64,000 nucleotides of DNA from a virus: the IMG/VR virus record IMGVR_UViG_3300045988_128165. One strand, written 5' to 3'. Shown here one piece after another: positions 7,531 to 44,916 of the stretch (position 1 is the first letter of the stretch; the number at the start of each line of letters is the position of its first letter). The notes under the pieces are model-generated. The model did not search any database. It was not told the origin of the DNA and saw only the letters and a list, made by a program, of their open reading frames with translations. Position numbers and translations under genes: made by a program.

Positions 7531-7551
7531 AATTAGAAAGGAGAAAATAAA

Positions 7552-7950
7552 ATGAAAACAATTGAAAAGATGACTACCATTTATCAAGCACTTGACGGAA
7601 AGGAATTTGTAAATAAAATTGATTGTGCGAATTATGAGGCAGAAAAGTATAAAGACATTAATATTTGCCACTTTGACTTTAATGTACCATATGGAGATGA
7701 TGGTCTTTTCTTCTGGACTGCTTATAAGGTAAATTCCGAAAACGAATTTAATATGCTTATAACATATCTTTCCTATCATTATGATGATTTGTACGGAATT
7801 GAGAGATATGCAGGAGCTTGTTGGTACGCCGTACAATTTCAGGATGGCGGAGCATGGGCGGATGTAAAAATTCTTAGTCAAGTCGTAAAGGATTTTACAA
7901 ATATGCTTGCAGAACTTGCAGAAAAAACAATGGATTTTGAGGAGGTATAA
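7552..7950 (+). CDS. hypothetical protein
   Basis: ORF track; AGGAG RBS. Confidence 0.6.
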   Translation: MKTIEKMTTIYQALDGKEFVNKIDCANYEAEKYKDINICHFDFNVPYGDDGLFFWTAYKVNSENEFNMLITYLSYHYDDLYGIERYAGACWYAVQFQDGGAWADVKILSQVVKDFTNMLAELAEKTMDFEEV

Positions 7951-13176: not shown

Positions 13177-14151
13177 ATGACAGGCAGAACTGAAAAAGAA
13201 ATTGCGTCAACTAAAAGAATGCAAGGAAAATTGAAAGAACTTCCTAAAATCTTTTCTGAATTTTATTATTATATGTGTTCAACAAAATCTTATACAACAG
13301 TTGAAAGATATATTGCATATGTAAGGGAATTTGCAGAATTCTTGAATGATGGGGACATTCCAAATAACTTTTACAAGAGAGTTACTCCGCTAGATATTAA
13401 CAAATATTTTGCGGCAATGAAGAATAAAGAAAGCGCACATGGGCATTATAATACAAGTGACAGCATTCGTGCGACAAAATGGTCTGCGCTGAATACTTTC
13501 TTTGGATTTCTTAAGAGTAATAACTATATTGCAAATAATCCAATGGAGAGAACGGAGCGTCCAAAAGTTCAAGATAGACCAGACGTTGCTTATTTGACAG
13601 AAGAAGAAATTCAGGCAATGCTGGACAATGTTAACAAACTTGCAAGCACAAAAATGAAAAACAGAGATCTGGCGATTATTATGCTTGGACTTACAACTGG
13701 ACTTCGTGTCTCAGCCATTACGCAAATTGATATTAGCGATATTGATTTTAAAAATAATACCATTAAGGTAATTGAAAAAAGAGGAAAAACATGCAACATT
13801 CTTATTGGCGACAAGGTAAAAGAACAGATCGAATTGTGGCTTCAAGATAGAAAAAAATATTTTAGCATGACAGATTCCGATGCGCTGTTTATTTCTAGTT
13901 TTAAGAAAAGAATTACTAGAGATGGAATTAGAGTGATCCTAGAGAAGTATAGTAAAGATGTTACAAATAAGCATGTTACTCCACATGTGCTAAGGCATTC
14001 TTGTGCAACAAATCTGTATGAGAAAACAGGAGATATTTATCTTTGTGCGACAGTGCTAAATCATAAAAATATTGCTACTACTATGAGATATGCAAGTATG
14101 TCTAAAGACAAAAAACAGAAAGCAGCGAACATTTTGAATGATATGATTTAA
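13177..14151 (+). CDS. tyrosine recombinase, XerC/D-like
   Basis: TGLRVSA (Arg I), HVLRHSCAT (HxxR), NHKNIATTMRY (His/Tyr). Confidence 0.8.
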   Translation: MTGRTEKEIASTKRMQGKLKELPKIFSEFYYYMCSTKSYTTVERYIAYVREFAEFLNDGDIPNNFYKRVTPLDINKYFAAMKNKESAHGHYNTSDSIRATKWSALNTFFGFLKSNNYIANNPMERTERPKVQDRPDVAYLTEEEIQAMLDNVNKLASTKMKNRDLAIIMLGLTTGLRVSAITQIDISDIDFKNNTIKVIEKRGKTCNILIGDKVKEQIELWLQDRKKYFSMTDSDALFISSFKKRITRDGIRVILEKYSKDVTNKHVTPHVLRHSCATNLYEKTGDIYLCATVLNHKNIATTMRYASMSKDKKQKAANILNDMI

Positions 14152-14157
14152 TAAGAT

Positions 14158-14186
14158 TTGACAATTATAATTTTGTACTGTACAAT
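14158..14186 (+). promoter_or_regulatory. sigma-A-type promoter with inverted motif in the spacer
   Basis: TTGACA, 17 nt containing ATAATTTTGTAC, then TACAAT. Confidence 0.65.
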
Positions 14187-14223
14187 ATAAAAGAAATGAA
14201 AAACTCACAAGGAGTGTGATTAT

Positions 14224-15144
14224 GTGTTCTATAATGAGGAGGTTAAAATACAATTCATAAACGATTATAAGAGAAGTAGAGTCGTTAATGAAACTTCATT
14301 AACTGGAATGTTTAACAAGATATATAAATATGAAATACAAAATAAAAAAGATTGCAATAATTTTGCAATTGAAGAAATACTGGCCATGTATCGTTGCTTC
14401 AAAGCGAAATCTGTGCACGTGCTTGAGAATTACAATGTGTATTTAAAAAGCTATGCAGCGTTTTGTATGCATTATGGTTTTGGCATGGAAAACAATTACT
14501 CAAATATTAGTAAGGCCATGCTGCAAGAATGTCTTGATGAAAATATAATTAAACAAAAGTTCTTGACAAGGGAACAGTTTGACGAGGTAGAAGACGAATT
14601 ATACAACTATACAGACAAGGCGTTGCTGGAGTTACTATGGGAAGGCATTAGTGGAAAAAGCATGGAAGATATTGTTGCGTTAAAGAGAAGTATGATAAGT
14701 GAAGACAAACAATATATTTGTTTTGAAGACGGACGAAAAGTAAAGTTATCTGCAAAATTGTATAATTATTTAGACAAGGCATTTGCAGAAAAAGAATATA
14801 TGTGCTATGGGGTAACTGTTAGAGTTAAACAACTAATTGGAGACGATTGTTTATACAAGGAAATGGATAATGCGTATACAGTAGACTCTGATGATAAGTT
14901 TTTCCGTTGGGTATATAGAAGAATTCAGACATATAGGAAGCACGTAGGATTGCCATTGCTTACTATGAAGACAATTGCGGCGTCAGGGCTTTTATATAAA
15001 ATTAAACAAGCAATGGAAAAGAATAATCTTGGGCTAAGAGAATTTTTATATACAGAGGAAGGCAAAGCATTGGCACAGCAATATGGATACAAGTTAAATT
15101 CATATGTTGATGTTATTGCCAACAAGTTTGCAAGTCTGGTGTAG
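14224..15144 (+). CDS. 306-aa protein adjacent to the recombinase; candidate regulator, function unproven
   Basis: ORF track, GTG start 9 nt after AAGGAG; no catalytic recombinase motifs seen. Confidence 0.5.
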   Translation: MFYNEEVKIQFINDYKRSRVVNETSLTGMFNKIYKYEIQNKKDCNNFAIEEILAMYRCFKAKSVHVLENYNVYLKSYAAFCMHYGFGMENNYSNISKAMLQECLDENIIKQKFLTREQFDEVEDELYNYTDKALLELLWEGISGKSMEDIVALKRSMISEDKQYICFEDGRKVKLSAKLYNYLDKAFAEKEYMCYGVTVRVKQLIGDDCLYKEMDNAYTVDSDDKFFRWVYRRIQTYRKHVGLPLLTMKTIAASGLLYKIKQAMEKNNLGLREFLYTEEGKALAQQYGYKLNSYVDVIANKFASLV

Positions 15145-17083: not shown

Positions 17084-18094
17084 ATGGAAGAATTAAAAGA
17101 AATGAATTCTTCCGTTGATGGGCTACAAGATACAATATATACGGAAGTAAAAGATCCATATGGATTCATTTATATCACAACGAATTTGATTGATGGCAAA
17201 AGATATTTAGGCCAAAGAAAATTCTATGGAAATTGGCAAGAATATCTTGGTAGTGGTGCAGCATTTAAACAAGCAATTGACAAATATGGAAAAGAAAATT
17301 TTGTAAGAAATGTAATTGATATTGCTTATTCTGCAGAAGAATTAAATGAAAAGGAATATAATTATAGTGTTTTCTTTAATGCGGTTGAATCTAACAATTG
17401 GTATAATCTTGTTTATGGTGGAGGAACAACGCAAGGATGGACTCCAAGTAAAGAAACAAGAAAAAAGATATCAAAAGCTGCAAAAGAAAGACTTTCAGAT
17501 CCAAATAATCATCCAATGTATAGAAGAGTAGGATTAGTAGGCGAGAATAATCCCCAGTTTAAAGTTTCTCCAAAAGAACGCATGGATGAAGAAACATATA
17601 AACAATGGTATGAAAAACATAAATTATATTGGGCAAATCCAACAACTAAAGGCAAACATATATGGATAGGAAAACAACATCCCAGTTTAGGTAAAAAATT
17701 GTCAGATGAACAAAAATTGAATCTATCAGAAAAAGCAAAAGAAAGATTTATAAATTCAAGCAATCATCCAATGTACGGAAAACATCACACAGAAGAAGCA
17801 AAGCAAAAGATGAGTGATTCTCGTAAAGGGAGTAATTGGTGGAAGTGTAGAAGAATATATTGTATAGAATTAAATCAAATTTTTTGGGGAGCAAAAGAAG
17901 TACAAAATTTATATGGATTTGATCCAAGCTCTATTACAAAGTGCTGTAGAGGCAAACAAAATTATACACATAAACATCCACAAACAGGCGAGGTATTGCA
18001 TTGGTTGTATGCGGAAGATGCAATCAAAAAAGGATATATCACACAAGAAGAGTTAGATGGATATATAAATAGTTTAAAAGGTAAAGGAGACTGA
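17084..18094 (+). CDS. GIY-YIG homing endonuclease with NUMOD3-like repeats
   Basis: GFIYITTN...YLGQ core; repeated HPMY/NPxF-K motifs. Confidence 0.8.
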   Translation: MEELKEMNSSVDGLQDTIYTEVKDPYGFIYITTNLIDGKRYLGQRKFYGNWQEYLGSGAAFKQAIDKYGKENFVRNVIDIAYSAEELNEKEYNYSVFFNAVESNNWYNLVYGGGTTQGWTPSKETRKKISKAAKERLSDPNNHPMYRRVGLVGENNPQFKVSPKERMDEETYKQWYEKHKLYWANPTTKGKHIWIGKQHPSLGKKLSDEQKLNLSEKAKERFINSSNHPMYGKHHTEEAKQKMSDSRKGSNWWKCRRIYCIELNQIFWGAKEVQNLYGFDPSSITKCCRGKQNYTHKHPQTGEVLHWLYAEDAIKKGYITQEELDGYINSLKGKGD

Positions 18095-25660: not shown

Positions 25661-25749
25661 GGCGGAGTATCCGAATGGCACAGGAAATTGACTTAAAATC
25701 AATCGGCAATTAAGTTTGCTTGCGAGTTCAAATCTCGTCTCCGCTACCA
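25661..25749 (+). tRNA. tRNA-Leu(UAA), type II
   Basis: acceptor GGCGGAG/CTCCGCT, loop CTTAAAA, long variable arm, T-loop TTCAAAT, encoded CCA. Confidence 0.8.
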
Positions 25750-25830
25750 ACTCGCTAACGTTTCTTTTGTATTTCTTTCATTCAGAGTACAACGAAGACA
25801 AGAAATATAGATAAAATGGTTTTATAATAT

Positions 25831-25906
25831 GTCCAAGTAACTCAGCGCATAGAGTATGCGGCTACGAACCACAAAGTCGGGAGTTGGGATCTCCCCTTGG
25901 ATGCCA
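25831..25906 (+). tRNA. tRNA-Arg(ACG) with non-canonical T-loop
   Basis: acceptor GTCCAAG/CTTGGAT, loop CTACGAA, T-loop TTGGGAT, CCA. Confidence 0.65.
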
Positions 25907-25940
25907 ACACATTAATGAATAACACTATTTATCAATTGAG

Positions 25941-26711
25941 ATGATGCCAAATATGTATAGAAGAGAAAAGATTAAAGGGTATGAGCGCTATGAAGTTGAT
26001 ACTAATGGCGTTGTATATAGTCAAAAAGGAAATCCTTTAAAATTTCACGTCAACCATAATGGATATTGTATGGTATGTCTGTGCACGAATGGAGAAATAA
26101 AAGGATTTGGAATACATCAGCTTGTAGCAAGACAATTTATTGAGAATGATGATCCTTTGAATAAAACGCAAGTTAATCATAAAGATGGCAATAAACAGAA
26201 CAATCATGTTGAAAATTTAGAATGGGCAACAGCAAAAGAGAATATGCGCCATTCTGTTGATATCCTCGGCAATTATTTAGAAGACAAAAATGCCAATGCT
26301 CGTACTATTTACGGAGTTGATATAAAAACCCATGAGGTTAAATATAGATTCACAAGTTTGATTGGCGCAGCTAGGTTTTTTGCTGATGATAAAAATAAAG
26401 AAAGACATATACAAGCAACGTTATGGAGAGTCTTAAATCATTATGAAGCGTCACGTTCATATAGAAGTTGTTTATGGTTTTATGAAGACGAATGCCCTTA
26501 TGAAATAAATGATGTAGTTAATTTGTCAGATAACTATATCCCAGATCGTGGGTTCAGAAAACTTTCAGACGATGATGTTAAATGGATTCGCACACATTAT
26601 ATTCCATACGATAATGAGTTTGGAACACGAGGAGTTGCTAGAAGATTTCACATAGATAATAGCACAGTATCAGATATTGTAAATTATAAAACATATACAG
26701 ATATATGCTAA
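25941..26711 (+). CDS. HNH homing endonuclease (NUMOD4 + HNH_3 type)
   Basis: YERYEVDTNGVVYS; NHKDGNKQNNHVENLEW. Confidence 0.85.
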   Translation: MMPNMYRREKIKGYERYEVDTNGVVYSQKGNPLKFHVNHNGYCMVCLCTNGEIKGFGIHQLVARQFIENDDPLNKTQVNHKDGNKQNNHVENLEWATAKENMRHSVDILGNYLEDKNANARTIYGVDIKTHEVKYRFTSLIGAARFFADDKNKERHIQATLWRVLNHYEASRSYRSCLWFYEDECPYEINDVVNLSDNYIPDRGFRKLSDDDVKWIRTHYIPYDNEFGTRGVARRFHIDNSTVSDIVNYKTYTDIC

Positions 26712-26751
26712 CACCATTGACCTTGGCAAGTCATTAAACTACCATCTATAT

Positions 26752-26836
26752 GGGGGTATGGCGTAACTAGCAACCGCGCAAGTCTCAAAAACTTGTGGAG
26801 AAATCCGTCCGGGCGCACATCCCGGTACCCCTACCA
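26752..26836 (+). tRNA. tRNA-Leu(CAA), type II, non-canonical T-loop
   Basis: acceptor GGGGGTA/TACCCCT, loop CTCAAAA, T-arm CCGGG-CGCACAT-CCCGG, CCA. Confidence 0.7.
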
Positions 26837-26839
26837 CAT

Positions 26840-26932
26840 CCTCCTTTAGTGTAATGGTAGCACGGCGCACGCAAGGCGCTAGAGCGGTTCAACTCCGTAA
26901 TGTGTTAGAGCGGTTCAATTCCGCAAGGAGGT
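26840..26932 (+). tRNA. tRNA-Cys(GCA)-like with a 26-nt tandem duplication of the T-arm
   Basis: acceptor CCTCCTT/AAGGAGG; TAGAGCGGTTCAACTCCG then TAGAGCGGTTCAATTCCG. Confidence 0.5.
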
Positions 26933-27116
26933 CGTCTGGCACGGACGAAGTGCGCTGTGGTCATACAGTAAAATGACAAAGCTCATGGCCGATATGGATG
27001 GCGACAAATATGAGCGAGGCAGAACAATTAAATCTTGGGTCTGCAAGTAAGCCTGTCGGCAACAGAGGAGAGCCTTATGCTTGCTAGGTGTTCTAGATGC
27101 CTTTCTCCTCATAAAT

Positions 27117-27215
27117 GGGAACTTGGTCAAGTAGCTAAGACACTGGCGGGGACAGAATAGTGCAAACATTAAGAGCACACTGCCGGAGACACGAGTTCGA
27201 ATCTCGTAGTTCCCA
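27117..27215 (+). tRNA. 99-nt tRNA-like gene with no normal anticodon arm
   Basis: acceptor GGGAACT/AGTTCCC, type II D-arm, canonical T-arm ACGAG-TTCGAAT-CTCGT; centre is a 7-bp stem around 30 nt. Confidence 0.45.
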
Positions 27216-27224
27216 ACTTAATAT

Positions 27225-27309
27225 GGGTCAGTAGCGAATCGGCAAACGCAGCAGACTGTAAATCTGCCTCCTTCGGGAATAGGTGGATCGACACCACCCT
27301 GACCCACCA
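27225..27309 (+). tRNA. tRNA-Tyr(GUA), type II
   Basis: acceptor GGGTCAG/CTGACCC, loop CTGTAAA, T-loop ATCGACA, CCA. Confidence 0.8.
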
Positions 27310-27558
27310 AATGGTAGTAAGTAGTGCAAATTTTATATCAGATAACCAGTAAGGATAAAAGCCGTTGCAGGATTTGCTCCCTGTATCGAGAAAGATTAAA
27401 TTTGAACTCGCTGAAAGTAGCTGGTGAATGGGTATAAAATGGAGTCATGCACGGCTCCGCTTGCTATCATTACCAAGGGATAAGTTGCTTAAACTGTTCG
27501 AACGAACCCTACAAATCGGCAGAAACGGTGACAGCTCGGAAAGACGGCAAATTAATAT

Positions 27559-27710
27559 GCTCCGCTAGCTCAATTGGTCAGAGCACCCGACTTCGCTGCA
27601 TGGTGTAATAGCAACACTGCTTAACCGCGGATTAAGAGATGTAAGGGCAGGACTTACTGCAGCGGCCAATAATCGGGAGGTTCCAAGTTCGATGCTTGGG
27701 CGGAGCACCA
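27559..27710 (+). tRNA. tRNA-Ile(UAU) interrupted in the anticodon loop by a 75-nt tRNA-like insert
   Basis: halves 27559-27593 and 27669-27710 give a canonical 77-nt cloverleaf with loop CTT|ATAA and CCA. Confidence 0.75.
27594..27668 (+). tRNA. nested tRNA-like unit (nominal anticodon GCG) with encoded CCA
   Basis: acceptor CGCTGCA/TGCAGCG, D GTGT/ACAC, anticodon arm CTTAA-CCGCGGA-TTAAG, T-arm GTAAG-GGCAGGA-CTTAC. Confidence 0.65.
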
Positions 27711-27715
27711 AATAT

Positions 27716-27786
27716 TATCGTATAGCTTAATGGGAAAGCGCCCTCACTATCAGAGGGAGATACTTGTTCGATTCAAGTTGCGTTAG
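27716..27786 (+). tRNA. tRNA-like gene with atypical anticodon loop ACTATCA
   Basis: weak acceptor TATCGTA/TGCGTTA, D GCTT/AAGC, stem CCCTC/GAGGG, canonical T-arm; C at positions 33 and 37. Confidence 0.45.
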
Positions 27787-27864
27787 AAAAATGTGGTTGC
27801 TATGCACGTCGCGCGTCGCCACCAAACAAAGCATAGTTGGCGCTGTGGAAAGACACAGAGATCT

Positions 27865-27949
27865 GCAGGAGTCCCATAGTGGTCGATTGGAGCGGTTTTG
27901 TAAGCCGCCAGCTTTGCTCACGTCGGTTCGAATCCGACCTCCTGCTCCA
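27865..27949 (+). tRNA. type II tRNA body with loop TTTGTAA (nominal UGU)
   Basis: acceptor GCAGGAG/CTCCTGC, 3-bp D-stem, 13-nt variable arm, T-arm GTCGG-TTCGAAT-CCGAC, CCA. Confidence 0.6.
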
Positions 27950-27957
27950 CATTATAT

Positions 27958-28073
27958 GCAAGTAAGGAAGAATTGGTCTTCTCTCATTTAACAAAGCTGA
28001 GATACAAAAAGATCGCTACTTTGGAAACGTTCGCTTTGGGGAAATGTGTGTTCGAATCACACTACTTGCTCCA
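27958..28073 (+). tRNA. 116-nt tRNA-like gene with about 40 extra central nt
   Basis: acceptor GCAAGTA/TACTTGC, D GAAG/CTTC, T-arm GTGTG-TTCGAAT-CACAC, CCA; centre does not fold as a standard arm. Confidence 0.45.
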
Positions 28074-28197
28074 GCGAGGTAACGTCACTTCCATCACGTA
28101 GCACAGCGGATAGCAAATAGTAAAAGAGATATGTGCACCTAGGCTCTTGTTTGAACTATTTGGTTATGATAAAGAAGGATTGGAATCCTCGCTTTAT

Positions 28198-28287
28198 GAG
28201 AGCGTAACTCAGTTGGTAGAGTTTTATAGCGTGAAGGGATATGCTATTGAATGCCCTTAGTCGCCAGTTCGAATCTGGCCGCTCTCA
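28198..28287 (+). tRNA. 90-nt tRNA-like gene with expanded anticodon region
   Basis: acceptor GAGAGCG/CGCTCTC, D ACTC-AGTTGGTA-GAGT, T-arm GCCAG-TTCGAAT-CTGGC; interleaved stems ATAGC/GCTAT and AAGGG/CCCTT. Confidence 0.45.
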
Positions 28288-28314
28288 TTAAAATATATAT
28301 TAGGAGAAATAGTT

Positions 28315-28554
28315 ATGGCAATTAAAATAATTAATAAAGGAAAAGATCTTGATAATCCTATATTTACACAGCGATGCCCTAATTGCGATTGCGTTTTTAC
28401 CTATCAGAATGAAGATGCTTATAGAAAGCCTACTGGTAGATATTATAGAGACTTTGACATTTGTTTTATGGACGATTACAAACAAGAAATTACAGTATCT
28501 ATTGAATGTCCTTGGTGCCACAAAAAAATTCATGTAAAAGACGAATATATATAA
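28315..28554 (+). CDS. zinc-ribbon protein
   Basis: ORF track; CPNCDC...CPWCH; AGGAG RBS. Confidence 0.55.
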   Translation: MAIKIINKGKDLDNPIFTQRCPNCDCVFTYQNEDAYRKPTGRYYRDFDICFMDDYKQEITVSIECPWCHKKIHVKDEYI

Positions 28555-28577
28555 CTCGAATCCTTCTTGTCGCGCCA
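28555..28577 (+). pseudogene. isolated 3' third of a tRNA (T-loop to CCA)
   Basis: CTCGAAT-CCTTC-TTGTCGC-G-CCA begins at the base after the stop codon; no 5' partner nearby. Confidence 0.55.
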
Positions 28578-28635
28578 GATTAAAAATTGTTAAGAGTGTG
28601 GTTCTCTTTGTGCAATGATATAATGGAGGAATAAG

Positions 28636-28839
28636 ATGAAAATTGAAAACAAGGTTTTTCTATGTTCTAATTATGCAACCCCAGTGCTAGAAGAGGCACT
28701 TGATGCATTTTCTAACGAAGGTTATAAATTGGTTTCTACCCAGATGGCAAAGAATCTCTATGGGGTCGAAGTAATGTATTTGTTTTTTACGAGGAAAGTA
28801 AAAAATAAAAAGCGAAAATCAGACTCGCAAGGAACGTGA
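28636..28839 (+). CDS. 67-aa protein, paralog of 22008..22175
   Basis: ORF track; GGAGG RBS. Confidence 0.55.
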   Translation: MKIENKVFLCSNYATPVLEEALDAFSNEGYKLVSTQMAKNLYGVEVMYLFFTRKVKNKKRKSDSQGT

Positions 28840-28846
28840 TATTAAT

Positions 28847-29014
28847 ATGCGACCATTTATGGAAAATATCTGTATGCATCCTCATTGCATGAATCCAATG
28901 TGTGAAGAATGTAGTTTCTTTACTCCCAGAGTTTTCGGTATTAGAGTGCCTAAGAGCTTGGGGTTGGCACTTTTTAAACTGGAAGGATTACTTAACACGA
29001 TGATTCGTTTTTAA
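28847..29014 (+). CDS. 55-aa Cys-rich ORF
   Basis: open frame filling a gap; weak RBS. Confidence 0.35.
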   Translation: MRPFMENICMHPHCMNPMCEECSFFTPRVFGIRVPKSLGLALFKLEGLLNTMIRF

Positions 29015-29021
29015 CTAGTAT

Positions 29022-29096
29022 GGGTCTGTAATTCAATAGTAGAATATACGCCTTTTAAGCGTACTACGGACGGAGCGTAACCGCCCAGACCCACCA
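29022..29096 (+). tRNA. tRNA-Lys(UUU) with non-canonical T-loop
   Basis: acceptor GGGTCTG/CAGACCC, loop CTTTTAA, T-loop AGCGTAA, CCA. Confidence 0.75.
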
Positions 29097-29192
29097 TTTA
29101 TTCTCTGTAATTTAGTCCACTTGACTCCGGTATAATCTTCTGCTCTGTTACCTGTTTGTGCAGGTTAGATGAATAAAGACAGAGTTATTTAT

Positions 29193-29268
29193 GGCTGGCG
29201 GGAGGTTGGCATCTCAACTTGGCTCATAATCAAGCTCAATTCAGTTCGATTCTGAAGCTCAGCAACCA
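29193..29268 (+). tRNA. tRNA-Met/Ile2(CAU)-like with imperfect acceptor stem
   Basis: arm CTTGG-CTCATAA-TCAAG, T-arm TTCAG-TTCGATT-CTGAA; only 5 of 7 acceptor pairs. Confidence 0.45.
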
Positions 29269-29271
29269 AAT

Positions 29272-29345
29272 AGCGGATTAGTGTAATAGTAGCACGACAG
29301 ACTTTGAATCTGTAGGTAGGGGAGCATAGCCTCTATCCGCTGCCA
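29272..29345 (+). tRNA. tRNA-Gln(UUG) with non-canonical T-loop
   Basis: acceptor AGCGGAT/ATCCGCT, loop CTTTGAA, T-loop AGCATAG, CCA. Confidence 0.75.
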
Positions 29346-29376
29346 TGTAAATATTAATTTTTAGGAGGAATATATT

Positions 29377-29484
29377 ATGAACACAAGGACTGCACTACAT
29401 TATGAGAATCGTATTGCGAAGCTAAAGGCCAAGAGTGAAGTTGTAAATGCAAACCTGATCAACAAAGCACAGAGGGAGCTTAAT
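29377..29484 (+). CDS. 35-aa ORF
   Basis: ATG behind AGGAGG, between two tRNAs. Confidence 0.35.
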
Positions 29485-29509
29485 AAGCTGACACAGAAGT
29501 AAGAATATG

Positions 29510-29584
29510 CGGTAGTAGCTCAATGGTAGAGCATCAGATTTCCAATCTGATTGTTGCGAGATCGTGCCTCGTCTACCGCTCCAT
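29510..29584 (+). tRNA. tRNA-Gly(UCC) with non-canonical T-loop
   Basis: acceptor GCGGTAG/CTACCGC, loop TTTCCAA, T-loop ATCGTGC, CCA. Confidence 0.75.
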
Positions 29585-29616
29585 TGGCGTTGACCATTAT
29601 TGGCAGCGACCACAGG

Positions 29617-29649
29617 GGGGTCTAGAGCTTTCTAGGCTCCCATTTTTTT
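29617..29649 (+). terminator. intrinsic terminator ending the tRNA array
   Basis: 9-bp stem (2 GU pairs) followed by ATTTTTTT. Confidence 0.7.
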
Positions 29650-29705
29650 GTGCAATTTGTACAATTGACAAAATGAAAATATATGATATGATAACGATAG
29701 ATTGA

Positions 29706-31560: not shown

Positions 31561-32664
31561 ATGATTTACCTAGATAACGCTGCTACATCTCCAATTTGTG
31601 AAGCCGCAAAGAATATTATCCTTGACAATCTTGACGAATATTACAATCCAAACAGTTCATATGAGGATGCTCGTGGAGTAAAGATTAAGGTCGAGGAAGC
31701 ACGTGAAAAGATTGCGGCACTAATTGGAGCACAACCTGACGAGATTTACTTTACTTCTGGTGGATCTGAAGCAAATTCATGGGTTTCAAATCATGATTTT
31801 ACACTAGCATCTAACATTGAGCATCATTCTATTGATCCAGACTATAAATTCAAGGTCGATTATAGAGGAATGGTTGATATAGAGAAATTTGAAAAAAGAG
31901 TAAATGAATTGCAGAATAATTATTTCGGTATTAGTCCGGGTATTGCTTCATGTATGATGGTAAATAATGAACTTGGAGTTATTGAGCCAATTGAAGAACT
32001 AGCAAAGATTGCTCATGATAATCATATGTTGTTCCATACAGATGCAGTTCAGGCATTCCCTCATATGAAAATTAATGTAGAAGAGCTTGGCGTAGATATG
32101 TTGTCATGCTCTGCTCATAAGTTTGGTGGGATTAAAGGATGCGGATTCCTTTATATCAAAGATGGAATTCATATTCATCCTTTAATTAATGGTGGAAGCC
32201 AAGAAAGAGGAATCAGAGGTGGCACAACTAATGTCCTTGGTGTCTTGGCTATGGCTGCTGCGCTAGAAGATACGACAACCCATATGAATGGAAATAATGC
32301 AAAAATTGCACGTTTATCCAATAAGATTAAAGATAATTTATTGAATGTAAAAGGTGTCACAATTAATGGGGCAACAGATAAAAAGCAGCATTTAGACAGT
32401 ATTTTGAACTTTAGAATTGATGGTGTACATGGTTCAGATGTTGTTGCGATGGCTGACGAATTTGGGATTGCTATTAGTGCTGGTTCAGCTTGCAATGAAG
32501 GTGATGCCATTCCATCTCATGTGCTAAAAGCAATTGGTTTGTCTGACGAAGAGGCACTAAGTAGCATTCGTGTATCTCTTGGAAGATATAATACAGAAGA
32601 AGAAATTGATTATGCTTGTGTGATTCTTCCAAAGGTCATTGAAAGATTGAGATCACTTAATTGA
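31561..32664 (+). CDS. cysteine desulfurase (NifS/IscS-like, class V PLP enzyme)
   Basis: SAHKFGG (PLP lysine) and SAGSACN (active-site Cys loop). Confidence 0.8.
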   Translation: MIYLDNAATSPICEAAKNIILDNLDEYYNPNSSYEDARGVKIKVEEAREKIAALIGAQPDEIYFTSGGSEANSWVSNHDFTLASNIEHHSIDPDYKFKVDYRGMVDIEKFEKRVNELQNNYFGISPGIASCMMVNNELGVIEPIEELAKIAHDNHMLFHTDAVQAFPHMKINVEELGVDMLSCSAHKFGGIKGCGFLYIKDGIHIHPLINGGSQERGIRGGTTNVLGVLAMAAALEDTTTHMNGNNAKIARLSNKIKDNLLNVKGVTINGATDKKQHLDSILNFRIDGVHGSDVVAMADEFGIAISAGSACNEGDAIPSHVLKAIGLSDEEALSSIRVSLGRYNTEEEIDYACVILPKVIERLRSLN

Positions 32665-32666
32665 TA

Positions 32667-32678
32667 GTACAAAATTAT
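32667..32678 (+). repeat. motif copy GTACAAAATTAT
   Basis: 16 nt upstream of ATG 32695. Confidence 0.75.
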
Positions 32679-32694
32679 AGAAAGGATTTAATAA

Positions 32695-33858
32695 ATGATT
32701 ATCAATAATAAAAGAGCGCTTGCATACATCCAGCATGTAACCAACATTCGTCCTATTGATGGTGCAGATAATATTGAACAGTGTAATGTACTTGGATGGA
32801 ATCTCATTTGTAAGAAGGGTGAATTCCATGAAGGCGATCCTTGTGTTTATATTGAGATTGACTCAAAAGTCCCTGAGAGAGAGGAATTTGAATTCCTTCG
32901 TGCAAAAGGCTTTAAGGTCAAGACAATGAAGCTTGGTAAGTTTAATTGTATCAGTCAGGGCCTTGCCATGCCACAGTCTGCATTTAAAGAGTTGGTAGGG
33001 CTTTCAGAGGGGACTGATGTAACCGATATTCTTGGAATTAAGTATTCCGTACAAGAGGATAATGCTCGTAAGAGCAATGGCGATCCTAATGCAAAATATA
33101 AATCTATGGCCGCTCGTCACCAGAAAATCTTTAAAAAGAAGTGGGCACGTTGGATGATGCGTCGTTCTTGGGGGCGTAAGGTTATGTTTTTCTTCTTCGG
33201 CAAGAAGAAAGATAACCCTCGTGGTTTTCCTTCATTTGTTTCAAAGACAGACGAAGAGCGTGTAGAAAATCAGCCTTGGCGTATTAGTGATGGCAAGACT
33301 TATATCGCTACAGAAAAGCTAGATGGCACTTCTTGTACTTATGCACTTGAACGAACAGGTCGTAATAAGTTTGAGTTTTATGTTTGTTCTCGTAATGTAA
33401 GACAGCAGGACGAGAAACAAGAGTGTTATCATGACCATAACATCTATTGGGATTTGGCGTTTAAGTACAATATCGAACAGCATTTGAAGGATATCCTAAA
33501 TCAATTTCCTAAGCTTAAATGGGTATGCATTCAAGGCGAGGGCGTAGGTTCTGTTCAGGGCAATCCTCTGAAGCTCAAGGAAGATGATTTATATGTTTTT
33601 AATTTTAAAGATTCTGAAAGGGGAAGATATAATTCTATCATTGGTAGAGCGATTATTGAAAAGATGGGCATGAAATGGGTTCCCATTCTTGGAAAAGTTC
33701 AAATGCCAGACACTATGGAGGAACTTAAGGCGCTTGCAACTGGCAAGTCCAAGGTGAATCCAGATGTAATGCGTGAAGGTATTGTGTACCGTTCTTTGGA
33801 TGGTAGTGATAGTTTCAAAAATGTCAGCCGCGAGTATTTGCTAAAACATAATAATTAA
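32695..33858 (+). CDS. ATP-dependent RNA ligase (N-terminal OB-like domain + KxDG nucleotidyltransferase; DraRnl/Rnl5-like)
   Basis: ATEKLDGTS motif I; N-terminus IRPIDGADNIE...GW..ICKKGEF..GD. Confidence 0.6.
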   Translation: MIINNKRALAYIQHVTNIRPIDGADNIEQCNVLGWNLICKKGEFHEGDPCVYIEIDSKVPEREEFEFLRAKGFKVKTMKLGKFNCISQGLAMPQSAFKELVGLSEGTDVTDILGIKYSVQEDNARKSNGDPNAKYKSMAARHQKIFKKKWARWMMRRSWGRKVMFFFFGKKKDNPRGFPSFVSKTDEERVENQPWRISDGKTYIATEKLDGTSCTYALERTGRNKFEFYVCSRNVRQQDEKQECYHDHNIYWDLAFKYNIEQHLKDILNQFPKLKWVCIQGEGVGSVQGNPLKLKEDDLYVFNFKDSERGRYNSIIGRAIIEKMGMKWVPILGKVQMPDTMEELKALATGKSKVNPDVMREGIVYRSLDGSDSFKNVSREYLLKHNN

Positions 33859-33877
33859 AGGAGAATGAGATGAAAGA

Positions 33878-34717
33878 ATGAACTATCATTCAGATAAATA
33901 CATAATGGACGGTGTTCGAGAGCATTATAACGAAGCTCTCGAATACTTTCCAGAGGATAGAATTGTGGGCATCTTCTATCAAGGTAGTGGCAATTATGGA
34001 CTTGATTATGAGGGTTCTGACGTTGATACAAAGTTGATTGTAACTCCAACTCTTGATGATATAATTTTCACTCACAAACCTGTAAGCACCACTCATATTA
34101 GAAATAACGATGAGCATACTGATTGGAAAGACATCAGACTTATGCTTCAAACATTCAGAAAATGTAATTTGAATTTTACAGAAATTCTTTTTACTAAATA
34201 CAAAATTGTTAATTCTCTATATATGAAACAGTGGGATAGAGTCGTTGATAACAACGAACTTATTGCGAGATATAATGAAGTTGCAGCAGTAAGGACAATG
34301 AAGGGCATTGCTATGGAAAAATATCATGCAATGGAACATAAATATCCTTCTAAAATTGAGATTATTGATAAATATGGATTTGATGGGAAGCAAGTTCATC
34401 ACTTATTTAGGGTAGAAGAATATTTACAAAGATATATTAATGGCGAATCTTATGCAGACTGTTTAATTTCAAAGCAAGCAGAATATCTTAAAAATGTTAA
34501 GACTTGTGGTTATCTTTCTCTCGAAGAAGCAAGAGTTTTAGCAAAAGAGTCTTTAAACAGAATATGTATAATGGCTGACAAGTTCCGCGCAGAGCATATA
34601 GAAGAATCTAATCCAAATGTTGATAATCTTTTAGACGATGTTCAACGAGAAATTATGCTAATCGCTATTAAGAGAGAAATTAACGATTATAGGATACAAA
34701 ACAATGTAAATTTATAA
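33878..34717 (+). CDS. Pol-beta-superfamily nucleotidyltransferase
   Basis: GSGNYGLDYEGSDVD signature (GS...DxD). Confidence 0.6.
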   Translation: MNYHSDKYIMDGVREHYNEALEYFPEDRIVGIFYQGSGNYGLDYEGSDVDTKLIVTPTLDDIIFTHKPVSTTHIRNNDEHTDWKDIRLMLQTFRKCNLNFTEILFTKYKIVNSLYMKQWDRVVDNNELIARYNEVAAVRTMKGIAMEKYHAMEHKYPSKIEIIDKYGFDGKQVHHLFRVEEYLQRYINGESYADCLISKQAEYLKNVKTCGYLSLEEARVLAKESLNRICIMADKFRAEHIEESNPNVDNLLDDVQREIMLIAIKREINDYRIQNNVNL

Positions 34718-34777
34718 TAAGGAGGGCTAATAAATAATGTAAAAGATACAATAAAATTCAATTATTTACAAAAAAAT

Positions 34778-35440
34778 ATGGGTTATATTTATAAAATTAC
34801 TAATAATATCAATAACAAATGTTATATTGGGAAAACAGAAAGAACTATTCAAGTCAGATGGTCAGAACATATCCGTTCAAGTAAATGTAAGCCAGATTTA
34901 CCATTATATCGAGCGTTCTTAAAATATGGCATAGATAATTTTTCAATTGAAGAAATAGAAGAATGTGATAATGCTATTTTAGATGAACGAGAAATTTATT
35001 GGATTGATTATTTTAATGCCTACAGAGAAGGATATAATTGCACGGCTGGTGGAGAAGGTGGAATAAAAACATATGAAGAAAATATTGATATTATTATTGA
35101 ACGCTATCAACAAGGAGAAAGGTTAGATCGTTTATGTAAAGAATATCATTATGATTACGCATGTATTAGACCTAAACTTGAAGCAAAAGGTCTCATTATT
35201 AATACAACGGCTGGGCCAGAAAAATTAAGCAAGAAAATATATGCAGTAGACCCAATTACATTACAAGTTGTTGCAGAATATGAATCTATTTCTGCCGCTG
35301 GTAGAGCTTTATGTAAAGATAGTAAAAATCCTAGAGCAATAGCAAACCATATTGTTAAACAAAAAGATACTGAACATGTATCTCATGGATTTTTATGGCG
35401 TACCACTGAAACTATACGAGATTATGAAGATTGCAATTAA
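34778..35440 (+). CDS. GIY-YIG homing endonuclease
   Basis: GYIYKITN...CYIGKT...R..EH...N. Confidence 0.85.
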   Translation: MGYIYKITNNINNKCYIGKTERTIQVRWSEHIRSSKCKPDLPLYRAFLKYGIDNFSIEEIEECDNAILDEREIYWIDYFNAYREGYNCTAGGEGGIKTYEENIDIIIERYQQGERLDRLCKEYHYDYACIRPKLEAKGLIINTTAGPEKLSKKIYAVDPITLQVVAEYESISAAGRALCKDSKNPRAIANHIVKQKDTEHVSHGFLWRTTETIRDYEDCN

Positions 35441-35459
35441 GAAAGAGATTAGTGATTAA

Positions 35460-35864
35460 ATGATCAACCTTCGTCAAGATTTAATTCAAAAAGAACTTTA
35501 TGGGACGTGCCAAGATGAGCTTACATATCGGAAATTAAAGCCTAGCAACAGCTTTATTAATAAACTTTTCAATCATTACTATGTTGTTGAGCACACGGAA
35601 CACTTTTATGATTCTGTGTCGCACGGGATTGAGTTTAATAACTGGATAGAAGTTTATTCTAATGGTGTTTTTGGCATGTCGCAGAAAGATGTTGATAAAA
35701 TTAGTAGGGAACATCTTAAGAATATCAAAAGATGTGGCGTTAGTTATAATGGTAGACTTTATATTGCAGAAAAAGAAGATTCAATTTTCATTTACTACTA
35801 TGGAAGAGATTTTGCGCTAGTAGATTATTTGTGGATTTTTAAGAGGAAAGAAAGAGATCGGTGA
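35460..35864 (+). CDS. hypothetical protein
   Basis: ORF track. Confidence 0.55.
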   Translation: MINLRQDLIQKELYGTCQDELTYRKLKPSNSFINKLFNHYYVVEHTEHFYDSVSHGIEFNNWIEVYSNGVFGMSQKDVDKISREHLKNIKRCGVSYNGRLYIAEKEDSIFIYYYGRDFALVDYLWIFKRKERDR

Positions 35865-35868
35865 TGAA

Positions 35869-36786
35869 ATGACTAAATTCTTTATGATGATTGGTTTGGC
35901 TGGCAGCGGCAAGAGTGAACAGGCCAAGAAACTTGCAGCAAAATATGATGCAGAAATTTTTTCTAGTGACTCACTTCGAGAGGAAATGTTCGGAGATGTG
36001 AACCATCAGACGGATAATGATGTTTTGTTTAAAGAGCTCCACAAGCGTATTAGAGGATGCCTGACTTATGGAAAGAGCGCCATTTATGATGCTTGTAATA
36101 TTAGCTATAAGCGTCGCATGGAGTTTCTTAAGTCTCTCAATAAAATCCCTTGTGAGAAGATTGCAGTTCTTATGGCAACGCCTTATGAAGTTTGTCTTGA
36201 ACGCAATTCACAGCGTGAGCGGGAAGTGCCAGAGCATGTAATTAAACGTATGTATATGAACTTTAACGTACCTTTTTGGTACGAAGGTTGGGATGATATT
36301 GATGTTGTTTATTCTGAAGATGCGATGGACTATAAAGGATGGGATAGAGATTGGATCGAATCAGTGAAAGATTTTAACCAAGACAATTCTCATCATGCCT
36401 TATCTCTTGGAGACCATTGTTGGAATGCTGTAAAATATATTGATAGTAACACACCATCTTTGCATTCAACGTCCACTGAACTTAGACATGCAGCAATGCT
36501 ACATGACGAGGGAAAAATCTTTACGAAAAGCTTTTATGATGCAAGAGGGAATCCTTCAGAAGATGCGCATTATTATTCCCATGAGCGTTGTGGGGCATAC
36601 AATAGCTTATTCTACGAAATGCCCTGCGAACATCTTTATGTAGCACAGCTTATTCAGTGGCATATGCGACCTTATCTCGCATGGGAGCAATCTGACAAAG
36701 CTATGCAGAAAGATAGGAAACTTCTTGGTGAACCTTTATTTAACGATATTTGTCTATTGCATGCTGCCGATGTGTCAGCGCATTGA
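35869..36786 (+). CDS. P-loop polynucleotide-kinase-like domain fused to an HD phosphohydrolase domain
   Basis: GLAGSGKS Walker A; C-terminal H...LHDEGK...H. Confidence 0.6.
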   Translation: MTKFFMMIGLAGSGKSEQAKKLAAKYDAEIFSSDSLREEMFGDVNHQTDNDVLFKELHKRIRGCLTYGKSAIYDACNISYKRRMEFLKSLNKIPCEKIAVLMATPYEVCLERNSQREREVPEHVIKRMYMNFNVPFWYEGWDDIDVVYSEDAMDYKGWDRDWIESVKDFNQDNSHHALSLGDHCWNAVKYIDSNTPSLHSTSTELRHAAMLHDEGKIFTKSFYDARGNPSEDAHYYSHERCGAYNSLFYEMPCEHLYVAQLIQWHMRPYLAWEQSDKAMQKDRKLLGEPLFNDICLLHAADVSAH

Positions 36787-44076: not shown

Positions 44077-44916
44077 ATGGACAAGACTACACTTGGTGAT
44101 AGAATGAAAAACAACTACGAGAATATTAGCAGATATTATCTAACTCGTAGAATGCCAATAATTACCCGCATTGACGGGAAGAGCTTCCACACTTTTACAA
44201 AGGGTTTTAAAAAGCCCTTTGATGACATCCTTATAAAGACTATGCAGGAAACTATGAAGTATCTCTGTGAGAACATTCAGGGCTGTGTCCTTGGCTATAC
44301 TCAGAGTGATGAGATTTCTCTAGTCCTTGTTGACTATGCAGAGCTTACTACAGATGCTTGGTTTGGAAACAATCTACAGAAGATGTGTAGCGTTTCTGCA
44401 AGCATGGCTACTCTCGCGTTTAATAAAGCTTTTACTCGTAATATTTCAAAACAATCTAAACGACTTTATACAGAACACCTTGAGGAAAAAGATGCTTCTT
44501 ATATTGAAACTCTTGAAATTGCAATGAACAAAGGTGCAATGTTTGATTCTCGAGTCTTTACAATTCCAAAGGAAGAGGTTTGCAATTATATGCTATGGCG
44601 GCAACAAGACGCTACTCGCAATTCCATCCTGTCTGTAGGTCAGGCCAACTTTAGTCATAAGGATCTTCATGGCAAGTCTTGCAACAACATTCAGGACATG
44701 CTTATGACCCAGAAGGGCATTAATTGGAACGATTATGCTACAACTTTAAAGCGTGGTAGTTGCTGCATTAAGGTTGATGATGGTCTTGCCCAGTACGATG
44801 AAGCAGGAAATATTTGTGGTTATACACAGAGAAGCCAGTGGATAATTGATAATGAAATTCCTATCTTCTCACAGGATAGAAATTATATTGAACGACTTAT
44901 TAATGTAGGAGGTTAA
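44077..44916 (+). CDS. Thg1-like protein (tRNA-His guanylyltransferase family, 3'-5' polymerase)
   Basis: LGDRMKNNYE...RIDGKSFHTFTKGF.KPFD...YTQSDEISLVL. Confidence 0.7.
   Translation: MDKTTLGDRMKNNYENISRYYLTRRMPIITRIDGKSFHTFTKGFKKPFDDILIKTMQETMKYLCENIQGCVLGYTQSDEISLVLVDYAELTTDAWFGNNLQKMCSVSASMATLAFNKAFTRNISKQSKRLYTEHLEEKDASYIETLEIAMNKGAMFDSRVFTIPKEEVCNYMLWRQQDATRNSILSVGQANFSHKDLHGKSCNNIQDMLMTQKGINWNDYATTLKRGSCCIKVDDGLAQYDEAGNICGYTQRSQWIIDNEIPIFSQDRNYIERLINVGG

Follow-up and report, generated by a model that had tools for sequence, protein, structure and literature searches.

A tRNA-Ile gene interrupted within its anticodon by a tRNA-shaped insert in the tRNA array of an uncultured human-gut phage

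Does a phage tRNA array in which many units depart from the textbook cloverleaf represent a working set of genes or a collection of damaged copies? The question is raised by a 64,000-nucleotide stretch of DNA from IMG/VR virus record IMGVR_UViG_3300045988_128165 (the window), whose source is an uncultured human-gut phage of about 150 kb. Between positions 25661 and 29583 it carries 15 tRNA or tRNA-like units, all on the plus strand, and a 16th nested within the unit that begins at 27559; an earlier inspection of the letters alone (the sequence-only reading) had placed roughly 16 units at the same positions. We think it rather probable that the array is a working cluster of tRNAs and tRNA-like RNAs and not a pseudogene graveyard, comprising tRNAs with rebuilt elbows, a tRNA-Ile split by an excisable tRNA-shaped insert, and conserved units that do not decode. 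Our judgement is evenly balanced on a more specific reading of the split gene: that it would represent an undescribed class of intron, in which a tRNA-shaped insert, sometimes itself a working tRNA, lies in the anticodon, is cut out by RNase P and a 3' endonuclease, and leaves exons that are resealed by the phage's RNA-repair ligase, so that the repair module would double as a splicing machine.

The split gene, a tRNA-Ile(UAU), occupies 27559-27710. Its 5' exon (27559..27593, plus strand) contains the 5' strand of the acceptor stem, the D-arm, the 5' strand of the anticodon stem, and C32, U33 and U34, with the layout, read by eye and from the fold, GCTCCGC TA GCTC AATTGGTCA GAGC A CCCGA CTT. 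The 3' exon (27669..27710, plus strand) supplies A35, U36, A37 and A38, the 3' strand of the anticodon stem, the variable loop, the T-arm (TTCGATG), the 3' strand of the acceptor stem and ACCA (ATAA TCGGG AGGTT CCAAG TTCGATG CTTGG GCGGAGC ACCA). Between them, splitting the anticodon after U34, lie 75 nt (27594..27668, plus strand) that form a cloverleaf of their own. The two ends of this insert pair together as a 7-bp acceptor stem (CGCTGCA/TGCAGCG), followed by a discriminator G and CCA, and within it are a D-arm (GTGT-AATAGCA-ACAC), an anticodon-like arm (CTTAA-CCGCGGA-TTAAG) and a T-arm (GTAAG-GGCAGGA-CTTAC); the layout runs CGCTGCA TG GTGT AATAGCA ACAC TG CTTAA CCGCGGA TTAAG AGAT and ends GTAAG GGCAGGA CTTAC TGCAGCG G CCA. 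The exon–insert junctions read CGACTT|CGCTGCATGG and GCAGCGGCCA|ATAATCGG. In-silico removal of the 75 nt gives a 77-nt product that ARAGORN calls tRNA-Ile(UAU), with the loop CUUAUAA and the predicted spliced junction CCCGACUU|AUAAUCGGG (longer context GAGCACCCGACTT|ATAATCGGGAGG). The sequence-only reading had listed 27559 among the units whose anticodon region, if redesigned, would fit an arms race with nucleases; what interrupts this anticodon is no nuclease-evading edit but a complete tRNA-shaped insert that needs removal. The insert's own anticodon-like loop is unusable, having C33 and measuring 7 or 8 nt in relatives.

No known type of tRNA intron was recognised at this position. The insert has no Rfam match at E<=10, intron families included, and its 75 nt fall short of the roughly 200 nt or more that a group I core (P3-P9) occupies. 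By inspection, no bulge-helix-bulge motif (two 3-nt bulges and a 4-bp helix) is present at CUU|CGCUGCA or GGCCA|AUAAUCGGG, or in the predicted folds.

The same architecture recurs in related phages, which are represented by contigs of 130-170 kb from human-gut metagenomes (handles beginning with L). In the first cases inspected, removal of the insert gave an ARAGORN-valid tRNA in 7/7. An unbiased scan was then run for segments of 60-100 nt that are bounded by a 7-bp acceptor stem (at most 1 mismatch) followed by one nucleotide and CCA, and whose removal yields a tRNA that ARAGORN accepts and in which the junction falls within an anticodon loop of 7 nt. The first 153 loci gave 66 sites, which reduce to 14 distinct outer/inner pairs, and 54 ligase-centred loci gave further pairs; controls with CCA replaced by other triplets returned solely 1-nt-shifted copies of the same loci. 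The total is 12 insert types, 66-85 nt long, in genes for tRNA-Ile(UAU), Gln(UUG), Lys(UUU), Leu(UAA), Asn(GUU) and Thr(UGU). All junctions fall at 34|35, 35|36 or 36|37 and each is preceded by U, for which the chance would be about 0.5^12 if these loops, which are rich in U, could be broken at any position. Cutting each insert out at its two ends leaves a loop of exactly 7 nt, with U33 and a purine at 37, in every type (12/12). In every type, likewise, the 7-bp acceptor stem stacks on a T-arm of 5 bp, the 3' end is a single-stranded NCCA and position -1 is U. A single outer tRNA-Ile hosts three unrelated inserts at two positions. Among the loci examined, no free-standing copy of an insert was found, homologues occurring solely in nested context.

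Several of these inserts pass the tRNA covariance model RF00005 (Rfam gathering score 29 bits) in their own right: a tRNA-Asn(GUU) in L026 (63.6 bits), a tRNA(CUA) in L022 (54.6) and tRNA-like inserts in L029 (51.0) and L107 (48.0). The nested Lys/Asn unit of L026 has matches to separate tRNAs only. A CUA (amber-suppressor) loop is present in the nested inserts L022 12304-12378, L165 1520-1596, L005 13855-13925 and L107 2305-2388, where it is kept while the stems change; this hints at read-through or recoding of TAG in the phages concerned. The window gives no such sign, and no merging of its ORFs with TAG or TGA read as sense was seen. The nested architecture, the chief finding in this region, is solid at the level of sequence and comparison, and from it we infer the splicing mechanism set out below. 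A full-text literature search yielded no account of one tRNA nested within another, nor of a phage tRNA intron that depends on proteins; its coverage was incomplete, so an earlier description may exist.

A rival account would be that a tRNA or tRNA-like gene killed the gene it entered, the halves persisting as relics or as leader and trailer, with only the insert mattering if anything does. The inserts of L026 and L022, good tRNAs themselves, would suit this account, as would the failure of the covariance model to find the window's outer tRNA. The pattern of substitution points the other way. Among six close variants, 0/77 exon columns vary as against 12/76 insert columns. In-silico splicing of five diverged split Ile genes leaves 105/105 cells paired and reveals 8 compensatory pairs. 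Five of these, four belonging to the acceptor stem and one to the anticodon stem, join a 5'-exon base to a 3'-exon base across the insert, and the spliced anticodon loop is invariant. To judge from these alignments, the outer tRNA is selected as one molecule. The exact restoration of a 7-nt loop with U33 and purine 37 in all 12 types, and the lack of a usable anticodon loop in the window's insert, also argue against a merely disruptive insertion.

The insert itself is constrained in shape. Seven variants of the window type were aligned, including that of L164, whose acceptor stem is wholly different (CTCCTCA/TGAGGAG); 147/147 cells of the cloverleaf are paired, with 5 compensatory pairs, values reached by 0-1 of 500 shuffles, and slid controls are 23-58% paired.

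Empty-site alleles are exact. The tRNA-Gln homologue in L005 carries a 71-nt nested insert, and its spliced form agrees at all 74 nt (100% identity) with the uninterrupted L012 gene, which lies at the same locus 8 nt beyond tRNA-Met. For the Gln exons of L022, L092 has an uninterrupted counterpart at 98.6% identity, and for the Ile exons uninterrupted homologues are present in L100 and in L208, a contig binned with Waltera intestinalis. L208 holds two such outer tRNA-Ile(UAU) homologues, at 4712-4788 and 7540-7616, in a phage-like array, and its binning with a Lachnospiraceae genome is a weak hint at the host group. These comparisons indicate that insertion or loss is precise. An integrase-type insertion or transposon was considered and rejected, because there is no target duplication at the empty-site allele.

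Split and intact copies also exclude one another. Among loci of at least 15 kb, the Ile(UAU) gene is only split in 23 and only intact in 18, Gln in 4 and 47, Lys in 3 and 18, and Leu(UAA) in 1 and 41, with both forms together in 0 for each isoacceptor, counts that are not phylogenetically independent. The split copy is therefore always the sole copy of its isoacceptor at the locus, and such uniform exclusivity is hard to reconcile with dead genes. On this evidence we regard a purely disruptive insertion as highly improbable.

How, then, might a selected tRNA with a tRNA in its anticodon be made? By its sequence and predicted shape, the insert carries every feature of a substrate for RNase P and 3'-end processing; bacterial RNase P prefers U at -1. 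The host's tRNA end-processing machinery would treat the insert as a tRNA. RNase P would cut at its 5' end (27593|27594), leaving a 3'-OH on the 5' exon, and an endonuclease would cut just after its CCA (27668|27669), as RNase Z does in Thermotoga, leaving a 5'-phosphate on the 3' exon, while the outer acceptor and anticodon stems would keep the exons together. Since a 3'-OH from RNase P and a 5'-phosphate from an RNase Z-type cut are the ends that ATP-dependent RNA ligases need, no healing step would be called for. An ATP-dependent 3'-OH/5'-PO4 RNA ligase would then seal the exons, the most economical candidate being the phage's own Rnl5-type enzyme encoded 3 kb downstream, and the product would be a 77-nt tRNA-Ile with the loop CUUAUAA. 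In relatives whose insert is itself a true tRNA (Asn-GUU or a CUA suppressor), one gene would yield two tRNAs.

The candidate ligase (32695..33858, plus strand) belongs to the DraRnl/NgrRnl (Rnl5) type, by which 3'-OH and 5'-PO4 ends are joined. It comprises a PHA02142 OB domain at residues 9-93 (1.6e-25) and a Pfam RNA_ligase domain at residues 202-375 (7.8e-18), matches PDB 5cot, which is NgrRnl, at E=5e-42, and has an invariant KLDG in the alignment at the KxDG motif; against TIGR02306 it scores 109 bits, below the 151-bit curated cut-off. It is followed by a Pol-beta-type nucleotidyltransferase (33878..34717, plus strand) with a weak match to Pfam RlaP (E=0.008, under the curated cut-off), and by a P-loop kinase (35869..36786, plus strand; Pfam AAA_33 2.8e-23) related to the bacterial Pnkp kinase domain and PSTK, with matches to TIGR04075 (4.5e-16) and TIGR03574 (3.4e-15) that are both far under the curated cut-offs. 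The match of this kinase to Pnkp covers the kinase domain, and no phosphatase domain was found in it. Of the three assignments, that of the ligase is clear. The three genes lie 3-7 kb downstream of the array, within a cluster (31561-36786) that also encodes a cysteine desulfurase and a GIY-YIG endonuclease; 7 kb further on is a Thg1-like 3'-5' nucleotidyltransferase (44077..44916, plus strand; Pfam Thg1 3.6e-31) of the tRNA 5'-end repair family. RlaP proteins are associated with RNA ligases, and Rnl-RlaP-Pnk modules are known as phage RNA-repair systems (PMC7824862, PMC12776372). Close relatives keep the ligase slot with three divergent alleles (62% identity; a 449-aa form), and in L194, a contig from another metagenome, nested tRNAs adjoin a ligase that is only 45% identical. 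In this phage such a module may serve for programmed splicing.

Several points weigh against this proposal, beyond the dependence among the exclusivity counts. Excision, ligation and aminoacylation of the split unit are all steps that we infer. The window's insert fails both ARAGORN and RF00005 as a tRNA, so its recognition by RNase P is assumed by analogy of shape. The ligase for which a broken anticodon loop is the classic substrate is T4 Rnl1 and not Rnl5. Encoded CCA inhibits RNase Z in many bacteria, where CCA-bearing precursors are trimmed by exonucleases, and such trimming would destroy the 3' exon; for the cut to fall precisely after CCA, the host must possess a suitable endonuclease. 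The association of ligase and split gene was followed in relatives within 20-kb pieces of their contigs, and it holds at that scale. AUA makes up 8% of Ile codons in the window's genes, so the need for a tRNA-Ile(UAU) is modest. Finally, the Rnl5 enzymes NgrRnl and DraRnl have been characterised on duplex nicks, and PMC4408790 describes NgrRnl as sealing 3'-OH/5'-PO4 ends there and gives duplex nicks as the preference of the group.

This last preference would fit splicing by another chemistry, for example by a metal-independent endonuclease that leaves a 2',3'-cyclic phosphate and a 5'-OH, followed by host RtcB or by healing with a kinase and phosphatase. The Pnkp-like kinase in the same cluster, which would be superfluous for ends made by RNase P and RNase Z, favours it too. 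The insert boundaries, however, coincide with exact tRNA 5' and CCA-3' ends in 12/12 types, always with U at N(-1), which indicates tRNA end-processing enzymes; there is no bulge-helix-bulge motif by inspection and no ribozyme or group I match in Rfam. We consider a different splicing chemistry decidedly unlikely.

Comparison with established systems places the proposed RNase P and ligase route among several partial analogues. Protein-dependent tRNA splicing in archaea and eukaryotes, by the bulge-helix-bulge endonuclease and RtcB or Trl1, likewise removes a short insert from the anticodon region with protein enzymes and an RNA ligase while the tRNA body holds the exons, features that the phage system would share. 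It differs in that the phage intron is a cloverleaf with CCA, has no bulge-helix-bulge and would be cut by RNase P and a 3'-end endonuclease; archaeal and eukaryal introns lie at 37|38, whereas the phage junctions lie inside the anticodon (34|35 to 36|37), and in a bacteriophage. Group I introns also interrupt the anticodon loops of bacterial tRNA genes, leave exact empty-site alleles and often travel with homing endonucleases, but the phage inserts, at 66-85 nt, are too short for the core, match no Rfam intron and fold as tRNAs. The T4 tRNA repair system (PrrC versus Pnkp and Rnl1) and the Rnl-RlaP-Pnk systems resemble the present case in having a ligase, and here putatively a kinase and nucleotidyltransferase of the same kinds, near phage tRNA genes and, on our proposal, in sealing a broken anticodon loop. 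In T4, however, the break is made by a host nuclease on a host tRNA, while here it would be programmed in a phage gene, and the ligase is of the Rnl5 type and not Rnl1.

Embedded tRNA folds direct cuts by RNase P and RNase Z in mitochondrial transcripts, plant t-elements and the MALAT1 mascRNA, as we suppose the insert to do; there the flanks become separate, unligated products, whereas here they are the two halves of one tRNA. The split and permuted tRNA genes of Nanoarchaeum, Caldivirga and Cyanidioschyzon similarly yield a mature tRNA from non-contiguous pieces, but rely on bulge-helix-bulge machinery acting on trans- or circular precursors and have no nested second tRNA.

To our knowledge, the only introns known in bacterial and phage tRNA genes are self-splicing group I introns. 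If the nested units are spliced as proposed, they would be the first protein-dependent tRNA intron in the bacterial and phage world, and the first intron of any kind that is defined by being a tRNA. Phage ligase/RlaP/kinase modules would have a housekeeping substrate beyond their assumed role against anticodon nucleases, a repair pathway could license a new type of mobile or neutral insertion, and co-expression of two tRNAs, suppressors included, would have a compact natural template. Whatever the mechanism, standard tRNA finders miss or mis-call nested genes (ARAGORN run with its intron option calls the window's split unit Arg-TCG), so phage tRNA repertoires, and the inferences on codon usage and recoding derived from them, are incomplete.

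The remaining abnormal units had been divided by the sequence-only reading into tRNAs with a normal anticodon arm and an odd T-loop, and units with a normal T-arm and an aberrant anticodon region. The first group holds up well. All six T-loops quoted for it are correct: tRNA-Arg(ACG) at 25831..25906 (TTGGGAT, with D-loop AGCGCATA; RF00005 44.0 bits), tRNA-Leu(CAA) at 26752..26836 (CGCACAT, with D-loop AACTAGCAA; 41.4), the class II tRNA-Tyr(GUA) at 27225..27309 (ATCGACA, with A54 and A58; 49.0), tRNA-Lys(UUU) at 29022..29096 (AGCGTAA, with D-loop AATAGTA; 47.7), tRNA-Gln(UUG) at 29272..29345, intact in the window (AGCATAG, with D-loop AATAGTA; 53.7), and tRNA-Gly(UCC) at 29509..29583 (ATCGTGC, an A54:U58 swap; 65.1), all on the plus strand. 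Four of the six (Arg, Leu-CAA, Lys, Gln) lack GG in the D-loop, as had been said of most, and Tyr and Gly retain it. ARAGORN misses the tRNA-Lys, which has one A.C mismatch in its T-stem and is 99.78% conserved as against 96.6% for the adjoining spacer. The canonical pairs G18:U55 and G19:C56 are replaced by C19/G56 in tRNA-Arg and by A18/G55 in Leu-CAA, Lys, Gln and the insert.

Across 355 distinct tRNAs called by ARAGORN in the window and in 115 related loci, the D- and T-loops change together. A canonical TTCRA T-loop is accompanied by GG in the D-loop in 277/281 distinct sequences. With G55, the D-loop lacks GG and contains AG (A18 G19) in 13/13, a set made up of Leu-CAA, Gln, Lys and Met, and the window's Lys and the nested inserts have the same A18/G55 combination. 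All six distinct sequences with G56, variants of one Arg-ACG gene, have the D-loop AGCGCATA (G18 C19), and 5/7 sequences with U56 (TTTGA) have a GG-less, GA-containing D-loop (G18 A19). The ATCRT T-loop, in which U54:A58 is reversed to A54:U58, keeps GG in 29/29 distinct tRNAs of relatives, spanning eight isoacceptors, and the NTCGRCA type recurs in the relatives' Tyr, Ser, Glu and Gly genes. Because the partners at 18:55 and 19:56 covary, the altered-pair tRNAs probably still form an elbow; such covariation is expected of folded, selected tRNAs and not of pseudogenes. Sequence comparison thus indicates that in the six tRNAs the elbow is rebuilt by compensating changes, not broken, and they would serve as functional decoders. 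With the combinations A18/G55, C19/G56 and A19/U56, nature has in effect scanned the tRNA elbow by mutation, which is useful for orthogonal tRNA design.

The sequence-only reading had suggested that both kinds of abnormality would fit an arms race. On such an account, elbows and anticodon regions are remodelled to escape tRNA-targeting nucleases or the host's modification and processing enzymes. G55 and A54 tRNAs would lose pseudouridine-55 and m5U54, and the split genes (Lys-UUU, Gln-UUG, Asn-GUU, Ile, Leu) overlap what we take to be the known target range of anticodon nucleases. The phage also devotes genes to RNA repair, a function that the literature connects with conflicts over anticodon nucleases (PMC7824862). 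Against this stands the fact that the mature anticodon loops of the decoding tRNAs are canonical, and nothing in the sequence connects the variants to any defence system. Near-identical sister phages exchange canonical and non-canonical alleles of one isoacceptor; the Arg-ACG slot, for example, may hold a gene whose D-loop is AGTTGGATA and whose T-loop is TTCAAAT. Hence the remodelled elbow is tolerated and interchangeable, not obligatory and not demonstrably an adaptation. We know of no nuclease that reads positions 18/55 or 19/56. An arms-race redesign thus goes unsupported, and we consider it unlikely.

The second group fared differently. Units 27117, 27559, 27716, 27958 and 28198 are indeed abnormal; 27865 is not, since it is a tRNA-Thr(UGU) (27865..27949, plus strand) with a normal anticodon arm (UUUGUAA), G1:C72 and C2:G71, whose extra length is a 13-nt variable arm, and which is found by ARAGORN, scores 50.3 bits with RF00005 and is 99.72% conserved. 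The five do not form one class, being a nested tRNA (27559), an elongated arm (27958), a pseudoknot or pair of alternative folds (28198), a C33/C37 loop (27716) and a rearranged unit (27117). Two further abnormal units had gone unlisted, 26840 with a duplicated T-arm and 29194 with a bulged acceptor stem.

Of these, 27716 (27716..27787, plus strand; RF00005 44.1 bits) begins 5 nt after the split tRNA and has a canonical elbow, no CCA and the anticodon loop ACUAUCA, with C33 and C37. In L005 its anticodon stem has changed in compensation from CCCTC/GAGGG to CCATC/GATGG, and it is 99.35% conserved as against 94.8% for the next spacer. Unit 27958 (27958..28073, plus strand) is a 116-nt RNA with a normal acceptor, D-arm, T-arm and CCA, missed by both ARAGORN and RF00005; its 63-nt centre is predicted to fold, where an anticodon arm would be, into a long irregular hairpin, and the unit is 99.67% conserved, its spacers 94.8-96.2%. 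An alternative anticodon stem for it, TCTCA/TGAGA, is broken by three single substitutions in relatives, and the long hairpin fits better.

Unit 28198 (28198..28287, plus strand) has a D-arm like that of tRNA-Phe and keeps the T-arm and acceptor stem without CCA; RF00005 gives 44.4 bits and leaves 35 nt unaligned. In its central 39 nt, ATAGC/GCTAT and AAGGG/CCCTT interleave as a pseudoknot or as two alternative folds, and the minimum-energy and centroid folds choose different helices. Both helices covary in L009 and L086 (to TTATC/GATAA and AAGGA/TCCTT), as does the T-stem; these pairs were read by eye, since MAFFT leaves them unaligned. After its putative GAA triplet comes U, A or C, which makes decoding unlikely. 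On sequence evidence, 27958, 28198 and 27716 are conserved, structured tRNA-like RNAs unable to decode normally, for which a role as decoys or processing signals is possible. They presumably resemble the species 1 and 2 RNAs of T4, tRNA-shaped and without evident decoding among phage tRNAs, but have no sequence relationship to them, and the elongated arm and putatively pseudoknotted anticodon domain are distinct. A search over all deletions for a single removable segment, evaluated with ARAGORN, gave no solution for 27117 or 28198; for 27958 it gave one weak solution (41 nt removed, loop TTAACAA) that we do not believe. No alleles of other length were found for 27117, 27716, 27865 or 27958.

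Gene decay, the alternative that the sequence-only reading had itself named, would make the abnormal units pseudogenes gathering damage in a redundant array. For two units it is the best reading. Unit 26840 (26840..26935, plus strand) has a tandemly duplicated T-arm, a 26-nt direct repeat at 26870-26895 and 26896-26921, where L001 and L004 have an unduplicated 68-nt form. Unit 27117 (27117..27215, plus strand) has a 34-nt 'anticodon loop', no CCA and an internal imperfect direct repeat, seen by eye (CACTGGCGGGGACA / CACTGCCGGAGACA); RF00005 gives 23 bits, under threshold, at 27125-27207. It occurs in few relatives, is fused to 26840 in L032 and is conserved no more than its flanks. Both are probably damaged copies, 27117 a rearranged remnant. 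The array is also mosaic between relatives, which decay might explain. For most units, however, decay is refuted, and the abnormalities are systematic as had been argued: the six odd-elbow tRNAs pass the covariance model and their tertiary pairs covary; 27716, 27865, 27958 and Lys 29022 are 99.3-99.8% conserved amid spacers at 94.8-96.6% that are never identical; and comparison with related arrays, which the sequence-only reading had proposed, brought out compensatory changes in 27716, 28198, the insert and the split tRNA. As an account of the array as a whole, decay seems to us very doubtful. An assembly artefact was ruled out, because dozens of human-gut contigs from independent assemblies carry the same units. 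In 26840 the 3' strand of the acceptor stem reads AAGGAGG, a perfect Shine-Dalgarno sequence, which is probably a coincidence, as no start codon lies at a suitable distance.

Nor do covariance models score only the standard units: RF00005 passes 10 units of the array at 29 bits or more (range 41.4-65.1), all six odd-elbow tRNAs among them, and leaves 26840, 27559, 27958 and 29194 undetected. ARAGORN also finds 10 units. A 7-nt anticodon loop with U33 and purine 37 is present in both Leu tRNAs and in Arg, Tyr, Thr, Lys, Met, Gln and Gly, and absent from 27716, 27117, 27958, 28198 and the window's insert (CCGCGGA). An Rfam scan of the odd units at E<=10 matched no family besides tRNA. Of the units not yet described, tRNA-Leu(UAA) (25661..25749, plus strand) is of class II, with T-loop TTCAAAT, GG in the D-loop and an encoded CCA, and is found by ARAGORN and by RF00005 (52.3 bits). 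tRNA-Met(CAU) (29194..29266, plus strand), found by ARAGORN only, has a normal anticodon loop (CUCAUAA) and T-loop and a bulged or mismatched acceptor stem whose bulge is retained in the relatives' variants.

Between tRNA-Arg and tRNA-Leu(CAA) lies an HNH homing-endonuclease ORF (25941..26711, plus strand; Pfam HNH_3 2.3e-9), whose presence varies among relatives and which accompanies an alternative Leu-UAA/Arg/Leu-CAA allele cassette with T-loops that differ between canonical and non-canonical. Four small ORFs of 41-79 aa, two of them Cys-rich with CxxC pairs, sit amid the tRNAs (28315-28554, 28636-28839, 28847-29014 and 29377-29502); the first is found in most relatives at about 87% identity. 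A terminator-like hairpin at 29616-29641, which with its T-run spans 29616..29651 (plus strand), closes the array as a consensus match, the regional count of such matches being no higher than in shuffles, and a promoter scan of the region was not above shuffles either.

The window appears to be part of a large phage genome: its long ORFs are all on the plus strand, G+C is about 36%, and among its products are PolIII-alpha, NrdD, an NAD-dependent ligase, RecJ, homing endonucleases and recombinases. Its PolIII-alpha shares no more than 34% identity with that of cultured phages, and among GenBank phages there is no close annotated relative, the sole DNA-level match being an HNH ORF at 77%. Upstream, two adjacent tyrosine-recombinase genes and a SegE-like GIY-YIG/NUMOD3 endonuclease (13177-15144 and 17084-18094) suggest a region rich in mobile elements; no reverse transcriptase, a possible route of intron gain, is among the window's ORFs of at least 150 aa. 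In distant relatives, a drum RNA (RF02958) that is not in the window lies inside the tRNA array (L104 8584-8695, 81 bits; L024 7524-7634, 72 bits), and a phage-encoded tmRNA adjoins the array (L034 4418-4827; L035 7957-8366). Distant relatives also carry tRNA(UAU)-like genes of 95-96 nt with a long variable arm (L023 12609-12704, L027 12963-13058, L033 6513-6607 and L034 6223-6318), the hairpin loop of which, CCAGAUUAG, is conserved among them.

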